64,000 bases of DNA from the sequence record PQ571307, one strand, 5' to 3'. Every line of letters starts with the position of its first letter. The stretch's first letter is position 1. Positions 21,913 through 23,204 of the stretch are shown piece after piece. The position numbers were made by a program, and so were the translations under genes. The DNA comes from Shigella phage SF1-1. Below the pieces are notes generated by a model that saw nothing but the letters and a program-made list of their open reading frames with translations, was not told where the DNA came from and ran no database searches.

Positions 21913-22404
21913 ATGTTTCAAGTAGAAATTCATGTGCACAACAGTTGTTCAAATTGCGAAACTTGTGGTTACAATAGTTCAACCATGATCACTATTAGCG
22001 GAGACTTAGGAGATGCCAAGTTTGGCGAAATCGCAAGCTGCTTCAGCGGAGAGGATGCAGATTGGCATGATATTGCACACTGGTTGGTGAGCAAACTAAA
22101 AGAAAAAGAGAAACCATTTCCTACTCTGCTTGATCGTTCTCTTGTGGAAGATGCAGGTAAAGCATATGCAGACTATGCGTATGCAGACGGGAAATATTTG
22201 GAAGATGATAAGGCTAACCATTTGCTTTATGTTTACTATGAAGCTGAATCTGCCTACGATAATTATTATAGCATGTCCAACATTCTACGTTTGTTTGCGG
22301 AGTTTGATATTTACTTTGAAGTGAGTTATTCTCAAGACGAAGTGTACGATTTGGATGACGAAGATTATGATGACTATGAGGAGGAAGAATGCCAAGACGA
22401 GTGA
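21913..22404 (+). CDS. hypothetical acidic protein
   Basis: ATG after GGGAGGAAAT; very acidic C-terminus. Confidence 0.45.
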   Translation: MFQVEIHVHNSCSNCETCGYNSSTMITISGDLGDAKFGEIASCFSGEDADWHDIAHWLVSKLKEKEKPFPTLLDRSLVEDAGKAYADYAYADGKYLEDDKANHLLYVYYEAESAYDNYYSMSNILRLFAEFDIYFEVSYSQDEVYDLDDEDYDDYEEEECQDE

Positions 22405-23204
22405 TTTTTGTAAGCGGTGCAGGTTTAAGTGCAGATAGTGGGATTAGAACATTCCGAACAGACACCGATAGTGGTCGTGCCTTATGGGAAGAATATGATT
22501 TAGAAGAGGTCTGCGATATTGGAGCTTTCCAAGCAGGTTATCGTGTTAGAACATCTCCAGATCTTCCAGTGGTCGGTGGTGTAGACGAGAACGGTATGGA
22601 TTTGTATGCCAAAACACACGAATTTTATAACAAAAGACGTGTTGAGCTTAAAGATGTACAACCTAATGCTGCACATATTCAAATAGCAAAGTGGTTTAAG
22701 GAATATCCTAACCAAGTAGTAAACTTGACGACAAACGTTGATGATCTATTAGAGCGAGCAGGTGTAGACAGAGATTCTGTTATTCACGTGCACGGATATC
22801 TTCCTGAAGTAGTTTACCGTATGCATCCTGGAGATTACAAAACACTGGTAGATATTGGTTACAATAGTATAAACATAGATGATTATAACTGGGTGAAGCC
22901 TAATGTTGTATTTTTTGGTGAGGCTGCACCTTTGTATGCAGATATGGCTCACTTGTTCGATACTTTGACCATGCAAGATTTTGTTGTAGTAGTAGGATGT
23001 TCAAACCAAGTTATCAATTTTAATTGGGAATTATTCCCTGCGCTTAGTATGGGTACAAAAATGGTTGTAGTTAACCCTGGAGTTAATTACGAAGAAACAC
23101 TTCTCTATGAAGATCGTGGAGTTTTTGTTTACCGAGAAAAAGCTGCAACAGCCTTCAGCAATGAAGGTTTCATTAAAATGGTCGAAGACCACTTAAACAA
23201 ATAA
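22389..23204 (+). CDS. Sir2 (sirtuin)-family NAD-dependent protein
   Basis: N-terminal GAGLSADSGIRTFR matches the sirtuin NAD-binding signature; RBS GAGGAAGA. Confidence 0.7.
   Translation: MPRRVIFVSGAGLSADSGIRTFRTDTDSGRALWEEYDLEEVCDIGAFQAGYRVRTSPDLPVVGGVDENGMDLYAKTHEFYNKRRVELKDVQPNAAHIQIAKWFKEYPNQVVNLTTNVDDLLERAGVDRDSVIHVHGYLPEVVYRMHPGDYKTLVDIGYNSINIDDYNWVKPNVVFFGEAAPLYADMAHLFDTLTMQDFVVVVGCSNQVINFNWELFPALSMGTKMVVVNPGVNYEETLLYEDRGVFVYREKAATAFSNEGFIKMVEDHLNK

Follow-up and report, generated by a model that had tools for sequence, protein, structure and literature searches.

A zinc-less sirtuin of Shigella phage SF1-1 belongs to a described phage clade and is probably a competent NAD+-dependent enzyme

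In 2022, Iyer, Burroughs, Anantharaman and Aravind described a 'distinct clade of sirtuins' encoded by phages (PMC9503650). From gene neighbourhoods they predicted that these proteins act in a KptA/Tpt1-like manner and strip 2'-phosphates from RNA in the course of RNA repair (section 3.7.3 of the same paper). Loss of the zinc site had been noted even earlier for the proteins of phages KVP40 and phiSt2 (Skliros et al. 2016, PMC5107563). Here, we analysed the gene sir2 in a 64,000-nucleotide stretch of Shigella phage SF1-1 (sequence record PQ571307; the whole stretch is called the window hereafter). The gene encodes a genuine sirtuin of the phage clade, whose gene, clade, zinc loss and functional prediction were all known before; among the T5, rV5, KVP40, SPC35 and phAPEC8-like members it is a full member that differs in nothing essential. 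As judged from its sequence and a predicted structure, the protein is probably catalytically competent and dependent on nicotinamide adenine dinucleotide (NAD+). The gene and the segments on which the comparison rests are the following (positions of the window; aa, amino acid residues):

22389..23204, plus strand: sir2, sirtuin of phage clade PHROG 2162 (open reading frame, Pfam, PHROG, AlphaFold2 model, Foldseek)
22416..22457, plus strand: NAD-binding loop GAGLSADSGIRTFR, aa 10-23, which aligns with GAGISAESGIRTFR of CobB
22458..22478, plus strand: cofactor-loop extension TDTDSGR, aa 24-30, which makes the loop 4 residues longer than that of CobB (BLASTP gap)
22527..22604, plus strand: variable insertion of 26 residues, aa 47-72 (columns 48-95 of alignment A1, see below; gap in the CobB alignment)
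22626..22640, plus strand: YNKRR, aa 80-84, class III YxxR motif; Y80 and R83 correspond to Y92 and R95 of CobB
22728..22742, plus strand: TTNVD, aa 114-118, a TQN[IV]D motif in which Thr stands for Gln (TQNID in CobB)
22791..22796, plus strand: catalytic His-Gly, H135-G136; H135 corresponds to H147 in VIHMHG of CobB and is invariant in A1
22797..22895, plus strand: cysteine-free small-domain segment, aa 137-169, in place of the zinc-binding module (sequence, A1)
22896..22922, plus strand: KPNVVFFGE, aa 170-178, the substrate-loop 'FGE' motif (RPHVVWFGE in CobB)
22995..23003, plus strand: GCS, aa 203-205, counterpart of the GTS/GSS NAD-ribose motif (IGTSGHV in CobB)

A sequence-only reading of the window had proposed an open reading frame (ORF) at this position, quoted the motif GAGLSADSGIRTFR and assigned the product to the sirtuin family; all of this was borne out. 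According to the ORF listing of the window, sir2 starts with ATG and encodes 271 residues, and the quoted motif spans residues 10-23. The identification is well above chance. The only Pfam match of the protein is SIR2 (PF02146), for which it scores 79.8 bits where the gathering cut-off is 24 (E=3.1e-22), and residues 2-271 align to positions 10-271 of the 277-position profile PHROG 2162, 'Sir2 (NAD-dependent deacetylase)', at E=1.7e-104. The best sequence match among solved structures is Escherichia coli CobB (E=1.8e-18), and the other matches in the PDB are Sir2Af1/2, SIRT5 and Sir2Tm. NCBIfam offered CobB-type models only, seven of which matched, all below cut-off; the best one, NF001753, reached 105.1 bits where 243 are required.

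For a closer inspection of conserved positions, we aligned 30 homologues sharing 57-94% identity with the window protein (alignment A1) and, by BLASTP, the sirtuin with CobB. An AlphaFold2 model made from A1 shows a compact fold with a mean predicted local distance difference test score (pLDDT) of 89.6 and a predicted template modelling (TM) score of 0.85. Its Rossmann domain and small domain can be superimposed on solved sirtuins. In a Foldseek search against the PDB, the top match was E. coli CobB (1s5p; E=6e-17, TM score 0.83 normalised to target), and matches to CobB, Sir2Af1, SIRT5 and Sir2Tm were obtained with a probability of 1.00 and TM scores of 0.65-0.83, again normalised to target. 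The best 50 matches were all protein deacylases (CobB, Sir2Af1/2, Sir2Tm, SIRT5, SIRT2, Hst2), and none among them was a defence-type or SirTM-type Sir2.

The residues expected of a working sirtuin are conserved throughout A1. In the NAD-binding loop, G10, A11, G12, S14, S17, G18, F22 and R23 are invariant, as are Y80, R83 and R84 of the YxxR motif, all five positions of T114-T115-N116-V117-D118 (N116 and D118 corresponding to N130 and D132 of CobB), and G203 and S205 of the GCS motif. In the substrate loop, K170, P171, N172, V173, F175, F176 and E178 do not vary, whereas G177 does (G/C/H/Y); P92-N93, H96 and N229-P230 are further invariant positions. The sequence-only reading had named absence of the catalytic histidine and the NAD-binding residues as speaking against a sirtuin. 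In this regard it stands, since H135, the GAGxS/FR loop, N116 and D118 are present and invariant in A1; the zinc-binding cysteines, which it had proposed to look for in the same alignment, are absent. The pocket can be matched to CobB residue by residue (F22 = F60, C42 = A76, Y80 = Y92, R83 = R95, V117 = I131, H135 = H147 and V173 = V187), with the phage residue of every listed pair invariant in A1. Positions 76, 92, 131 and 187 of CobB are the sites that were mutated in engineered acyl-specificity variants (PDB 6rxm, 6rxs). We regard the protein as a probably active enzyme because the model is confident and the catalytic and pocket residues are under strong purifying selection across lineages that are just 46-60% identical.

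Departures from canonical sirtuins are concentrated in a few segments. The protein contains two cysteines in all, C42 and C204, neither of which lies in the small domain. The stretch from the catalytic histidine to the FGE motif is free of cysteine, so that the pairs that would bind zinc are lacking. In the model, the small-domain segment that replaces them forms beta strands at residues 136-144 and 152-155. The loss is no argument against catalysis, as the zinc of sirtuins is structural and not catalytic (PMC8556138). When we searched the literature for sirtuins proven to be deacylases despite lacking zinc, we came upon a preprint on Sir2La, which is silent on zinc. The glutamine of the TQN motif, Gln129 in CobB, is replaced by an invariant threonine (Thr115) throughout the clade. 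Cysteine content and this motif go together: the closest representatives (E<=1e-33) carry 0-1 cysteines in the small-domain segment and most TQN-type relatives carry four, and among representatives at 50% identity the nearest combine TTN with 0-1 cysteines and the more distant ones mostly TQN with four. The signature of the clade, TTN plus at most two cysteines plus [FY]YxxRR, is present in 114 of 119 full-length close homologues. The cofactor-loop extension is well conserved, with S28 and G29 invariant and T24, D25 and T26 at least 90% conserved in A1, and is the sole segment of the model with a pLDDT below 50. CobB and the Mydovirus-type subclade lack the insertion at residues 47-72, which some other subclades possess.

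Compared with CobB (class III; 1s5p, 6rxj), the window protein is 32% identical over 213 aligned columns. Both share the GAGxS...GIRTFR loop, the YxxR pair, the asparagine and aspartate of TQNID, the catalytic histidine and FGE. The window protein differs from CobB by the missing zinc cysteines, by the replacements of Gln129 with Thr115, GTS with GCS and VYP with VIN, and by its 4-residue cofactor-loop and 26-residue insertions. SIRT5, the mitochondrial desuccinylase, demalonylase and deglutarylase, has the class III core and the YxxR pair that accommodates acidic acyl groups in common with the window protein and is matched significantly in sequence and fold; it differs in having a zinc module and a canonical TQN, and identity in structural alignments is only 18-20%. 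The sequence-only reading had also pointed to the Sir2 effectors of defence systems that deplete NAD+, and this link was not borne out: PADLOC gave nothing significant for the sirtuin (best model PDC-S65, 13.8 bits, E=0.0067), PF02146 is all that Pfam returned, and the fold search returned deacylases, so we rejected a defence-type identity. Given the deacylases among the Foldseek matches, the lack of a significant PADLOC match and NCBIfam matches confined to CobB-type models far below their cut-offs, we place the protein on a divergent branch of the class III sirtuins; it is no CobB equivalog and no defence NADase.

The phage-borne origin proposed by the sequence-only reading was confirmed. 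The 2.5 kb around sir2 are 99.5% identical to Escherichia phage EF1-1 (PQ571289) and about 93% identical to some 90 genomes of Phapecoctavirus, the phAPEC8-like myoviruses of about 150 kb in the Stephanstirmvirinae. The window is colinear with EF1-1, its position 1 corresponding to EF1-1 position 47852. The sequence feature itself thus adds nothing new, the same gene being annotated in EF1-1 and hundreds of genomes: in EF1-1 it is recorded as Sir2, and more than 100 Phapecoctavirus records carry it as well, with labels such as 'Sir2 NAD-dependent deacetylase', 'NAD-dependent protein deacetylase of SIR2 family' and 'putative Sir2-like transferase'. Of 50,697 phage records searched with tblastn, 981 contain a homologue. 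Identities range from 67-99% in Phapecoctavirus over 50-62% in T5-like Demerecviridae, 48-57% in Mydovirus and Henunavirus, 46-47% in rV5-like Vequintavirus and 36-38% in KVP40-like vibriophages to 30-37% in several jumbo phages. In a set of 5.8 billion proteins, 1795 homologues reached E<=1e-5, and a library of representative sequences contained 26 matches at E<=1e-30 and 542 at E<=1e-10. Within the clade, proteins of the Mydovirus type lack the insertion at residues 47-72 that the window protein has, and the sirtuin gene of Vequintavirinae lies inside an RNA ligase cluster whereas that of Phapecoctavirus lies outside. The sirtuins of Phapecoctavirus also look mosaic. That of phage vB_EcoM_UP17 (P0019) is 72-73% identical overall, with the last ~45 residues identical to the window protein (23073-23204), which suggests recombination inside the sirtuin gene.

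What does the enzyme act on? We favour acyl-lysine on a host or phage protein, that is, a CobB/SIRT5-like deacylase, and tentatively give this reading a probability of about 0.45. It draws on homology, as the characterised relatives are all deacylases and both the residues of the acyl-lysine tunnel and the YxxR pair for acidic acyl groups are kept. Since YxxR is invariant, the acyl group is probably negatively charged, e.g. succinyl or malonyl. An oxygen nucleophile of the substrate would attack NAD+ at C1' of its nicotinamide ribose, with departure of nicotinamide; the ribose 2'-OH, activated via H135, would then resolve the adduct, and the removed group would be carried away by ADP-ribose. 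The phage would thereby own a deacylase at work in early or middle infection, with a specificity unlike that of host CobB. Among the three roles put forward by the sequence-only reading (modulation of host NAD+ metabolism, deacylation of host proteins and counteraction of NAD-depleting immunity), deacylation is the only one with positive support from the sequence. Several points weigh against our favoured substrate. In our literature search, no phage sirtuin turned up that had been put to an enzymatic or genetic test. The score of the protein is well short of every NCBIfam CobB cut-off (105 versus 243 bits), and the small domain that helps to shape the peptide cleft has been rebuilt without cysteines, with a Gln to Thr exchange and a 4-residue insertion in the cofactor loop. 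In addition, why should a phage bring along a copy of CobB, which does not seem obviously useful to it when the CobB of the host restricts T4 and lambda (PMC4271551)? If the phage sirtuin is a deacylase, this restriction suggests that its targets are necessarily other than those of CobB. A further point against a general protein deacylase, of which it would not be expected, is the genomic company of its relatives. We examined this context in annotated genomes and 59 IMG/VR loci and grouped the sirtuins at 70% identity into 18 lineages, eight of which have a neighbour for RNA end healing or sealing within 6 kb of the sirtuin, where genes for RNA ligase, cREC, kinase, HAD, 2H, Nudix and calcineurin were counted as such.

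These neighbours lead to the alternative that the sirtuin takes the part of Tpt1/KptA, which we consider possible though doubtful. Phage cREC/phosphoesterase, kinase and Rnl1 would reseal transfer RNAs (tRNAs) cut by anticodon nucleases of the host and leave a 2'-phosphate, onto which the sirtuin would place the ADP-ribose of NAD+. The ribose 2''-OH would then attack the phosphorus, yielding 2'-OH RNA and ADP-ribose 1'',2''-cyclic phosphate, and YxxR would hold the phosphate, not an acidic acyl group. The two-step chemistry of Tpt1 parallels that of sirtuins. Both use NAD+, release nicotinamide and proceed via attack by the ADP-ribose 2''-OH, and sirtuin orthologues elsewhere sit in an RNA-repair context of the kind predicted for KptA; fold and sequence of Tpt1/KptA are unrelated to those of sirtuins, so that a functional analogue is all that could be meant. 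The published prediction concerns exactly this clade (PMC9503650), and we reproduced its basis independently. The sirtuin gene has RNA-repair neighbours in two phage families that are unrelated, and the repair domains differ between them. In the Vequintavirinae-type order (three genera), the sequence of genes is calcineurin phosphoesterase, RNA ligase, cREC (PF20274, E=3.5e-14), AAA_33 kinase, Sir2, ATP-dependent DNA ligase and MazG. Of the T5-type loci, 28 of 31 have a 'HAD domain in Swiss Army Knife RNA repair proteins' (PF18143, E=8e-18) directly downstream of Sir2, and the sirtuin gene of phAPEC6 overlaps at its end with a Nudix gene. Furthermore, the rebuilt small domain and cofactor loop would suit a changed substrate, and YxxR could hold a phosphate as well as a carboxylate.

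The genome of EF1-1 adds evidence on both sides, since the set of repair partners is complete without a Tpt1-type enzyme but local linkage of the sirtuin is missing. A repair cluster at 50789-56388 of EF1-1 (4789-10388 in locus L010) comprises cREC (PF20274, E=7e-14), phosphoesterase, an Rnl1-type RNA ligase (PF09511, E=6e-16) and AAA_33 kinase, followed by three small ORFs, an ATP DNA ligase and a MazG-like gene. Eleven tRNA genes lie at 14677-16586 of the same locus, and a tblastn search with E. coli KptA against the window and EF1-1 gave a best E of 0.5; cluster, tRNA genes and lack of a detectable KptA together make the partner set complete except for the Tpt1 type. KptA itself occurs in 98 phage records, mostly jumbo phages of Erwinia and Klebsiella and Clostridioides phages, and among the matches listed none belongs to a sirtuin-bearing genus, which counts in favour of the Tpt1-like alternative. 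We also asked whether KptA fills the slot of the sirtuin in phages without one, but its neighbours in two jumbo phages had no recognisable RNA-repair domains, and displacement was not shown. Against this alternative, the EF1-1 cluster is syntenic with that of Mydovirus/Vequintavirinae and its sirtuin slot is empty; on the same strand, it lies 2.9-8.5 kb outside the window start and 27-33 kb from sir2. Ten of the 18 lineages, that of the window included, have no RNA-end-healing neighbour within 6 kb. The 64-kb window contains no tRNA gene and no RNA-repair gene within 6 kb of sir2; when we scanned the ORFs at 84-23520 with Pfam and PHROG for a local RNA-repair context, a NinI-type calcineurin phosphoesterase 6 kb upstream was all that emerged, and we dropped the idea of such a context. 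The pocket resembles an acyl-lysine tunnel, and the host already has KptA. Adjacency is weak evidence in any case, as early regions of phages mix many genes of nucleotide metabolism. Because of this mosaicism, and because no sirtuin is known to act on RNA, we rank acyl-lysine before a 2'-phosphate on RNA as the substrate. We remain sceptical, without being dismissive, of the broader claim of the 2022 prediction, according to which the zinc-less 'TTN' sirtuins of large virulent phages as a whole are RNA 2'-phosphate removers and not deacylases.

A mono-ADP-ribosyltransferase that modifies a host or phage protein or a nucleic acid for takeover, comparable to Alt/Mod of T4, SirTM or SIRT6, is unlikely in our view. 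Sirtuin chemistry permits ADP-ribosyl transfer, the altered TQN motif and cofactor loop could redirect the outcome of the reaction, and the window protein resembles SirTM in joining a sirtuin core to a non-canonical active-site motif. It differs from SirTM in retaining the catalytic histidine, which SirTMs, as far as we are aware, lack, and in having no adjacent Macro gene: none of the 27 window ORFs scanned with Pfam matched a Macro domain, and a partner of this kind was thus not seen among the scanned neighbours. The fold search, with neither SirTM-type nor defence-type sirtuins in its best 50 matches, likewise speaks against transfer, even though most non-deacylase sirtuins are regarded as ADP-ribosyltransferases (Iyer et al., PMC9503650). 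Still more improbable is a NAD+ glycohydrolase that modulates the NAD pool or counters NAD-depleting immunity (Thoeris, DSR, SIR2-HerA, pAgo-Sir2). The enzyme must presumably bind and cleave NAD+, and NARP1-3 demonstrate that phages invest in NAD+ counter-defence (PMC13464706). With the defence Sir2 NADases ThsA, DSR1/2, SIR2-HerA and SPARSA, the window protein has the Sir2 Rossmann core and the substrate NAD+ in common; it differs from them as a single-domain protein of 271 residues from a lytic phage, with neither sensor or partner domains nor partner genes, and HerA, pAgo, TIR and SLOG partners were not found among the neighbours of sir2 in the Pfam and PHROG scans. It shows no similarity to the defence families, its conserved YxxR and FFxE pocket residues would be needless for a plain NADase, and phage Sir2 did not turn up in the anti-defence literature that we searched. 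Counter-defence is the weakest idea here, since a consumer of NAD+ would worsen depletion and no salvage genes of the NadV/NMNAT type are annotated in the window or in EF1-1. A tie to the Phapecoctavirus anti-defence gene Atd1 (MazG-like) or to the phage nucleotidyltransferases of Ho et al. was considered and discarded, the paper containing no sirtuins. Finally, the lost zinc site and TQN glutamine might point to an inactive relic kept solely as a binding protein. We hold this to be very improbable, as the catalytic residues are all invariant across lineages of 46-60% identity and in 114 of 119 close homologues, and the model is confident and compact.

Irrespective of the substrate, this strongly conserved enzyme, predicted to consume NAD+, is kept by about 2% of sequenced phages, and these are without exception large virulent phages that infect enterobacteria or vibrios. 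If it is a deacylase, as we favour, phages have a direct route to control of the acyl-proteome of their host. If it removes 2'-phosphates from RNA, sirtuin chemistry reaches nucleic acids and a yeast-like tRNA repair pathway is completed in phages; RNA would then be the first nucleic-acid substrate for a histidine-containing sirtuin, and the protein a sirtuin analogue of Tpt1/KptA.

The signals around sir2 and the ORF directly upstream of it are arranged as follows:

21826..21855, plus strand: strong sigma-70-like promoter (TTGACA, 18 nt, TGgTATAGT; 11/12 positions; consensus scan only)
21870-21894: hairpin with T-run (consensus scan)
21913..22404, plus strand: ORF of 163 aa with a very acidic C-terminal tail; alternative start at 21901
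22378..22384, plus strand: Shine-Dalgarno sequence GAGGAGG, 4 nt 5' of the sir2 ATG (direct sequence reading)
23212..23239 (end also placed at 23229), plus strand: GC-rich hairpin with T-rich tail, terminator-like, 8 nt past the sir2 stop (consensus scan)
23524-23547: bidirectional hairpin (consensus scan)

The ribosome-binding site of sir2 is strong, and its Shine-Dalgarno sequence falls within the part of the upstream ORF that codes for the acidic tail. As the ATG of sir2 lies inside the last codons of the 163-residue ORF, whose stop at 22404 creates an overlap of 16 nt, translation of sir2 is probably coupled to that of the upstream gene. Promoter and hairpins fit a two-gene unit of acidic ORF and sir2, as pattern matches only; promoter-like sites in the scan were in total no more frequent than in shuffles, and terminator-like sites numbered nine against 4.0 +/- 2.1 in shuffles. 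Terminators are annotated in the same stretch of the Schickermooser record.

The upstream ORF belongs to PHROG 9509 (unknown function), and searches of Pfam and the PDB gave no match for it. Near its N-terminus it has a CxxCxxC stretch, and its acidic tail reads DDEDYDDYEEEECQDE. It adjoins sir2 in close relatives only, namely in six of 60 loci (59 IMG/VR loci plus the window). The EF1-1 record calls it 'major head protein', a label that is unsupported because the true major head protein is gp148 of EF1-1.

Sir2 is the penultimate gene of a long plus-strand block, and a minus-strand block converges on it near 23.5 kb. Further upstream, the plus-strand block encodes thymidylate synthase, both subunits of ribonucleotide reductase (RNR), dTDP-rhamnose genes, lysozyme and PhoH as well as an HslV-like peptidase, methyltransferase-like ORFs, a calcineurin-like phosphoesterase (15719-16462) and a DprA-like ORF. 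Ahead of the acidic ORF lie:

19190-20131, plus strand: protein of 313 aa with DUF7277 and DUF7275 (ORF, profile scans)
20133-20528, plus strand: ORF of 131 aa
20521-21204, plus strand: ORF of 227 aa with C5-methyltransferase-like motifs (PHROG 757, 'DNA methyltransferase')
21204-21854, plus strand: ORF of 216 aa

The ORFs at 19190-20131, 20521-21204, 21204-21854 and 21913-22404 had no informative sequence match in the PDB. We considered the immediate neighbours as functional partners of sir2 and rejected them, given the missing clue from the PDB and the confinement of the acidic ORF to close relatives. The 227-residue ORF contains the motifs FDGSG and PPC, as C5-cytosine methyltransferases typically do, and is far shorter than normal ones; its sole hint in the PDB is a weak match to M.HaeIII (E=0.08). 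Three metagenomic contigs of more distant phages (L050, L058, L061) carry a homologue of it next to a sirtuin gene. As the methyltransferase-like and 216-residue ORFs accompany sir2 solely in phages with many further genes in common with the window, this gene order probably reflects ancestry, not function.

Comparison with EF1-1 revealed further differences away from sir2. Insertions or deletions affect the block of dTDP-sugar genes (window 8772-8776 versus EF1-1 36879-38751) and the interval between the RNR subunit genes (window 6455-6850 versus EF1-1 40677-41397), which in EF1-1 holds an HNH endonuclease. The part of the window at 41-47 kb is much more divergent from EF1-1 (78-93% identity) than the remainder. 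MG065639 and four more records named as Campylobacter jejuni phages contain the coliphage-type region at about 97% protein identity, and the host labels of these five records look doubtful. Downstream of sir2, an ORF of 90 residues (23248-23520, plus strand) is called 'Sir2-like protein' in the records of ESCO13, Ro121lw and EF1-1. As a Sir2-like protein it was rejected: hhalign against the sirtuin profile gave a probability of 0.25% and Pfam SIR2 did not match, and the label looks like a propagated mis-annotation.

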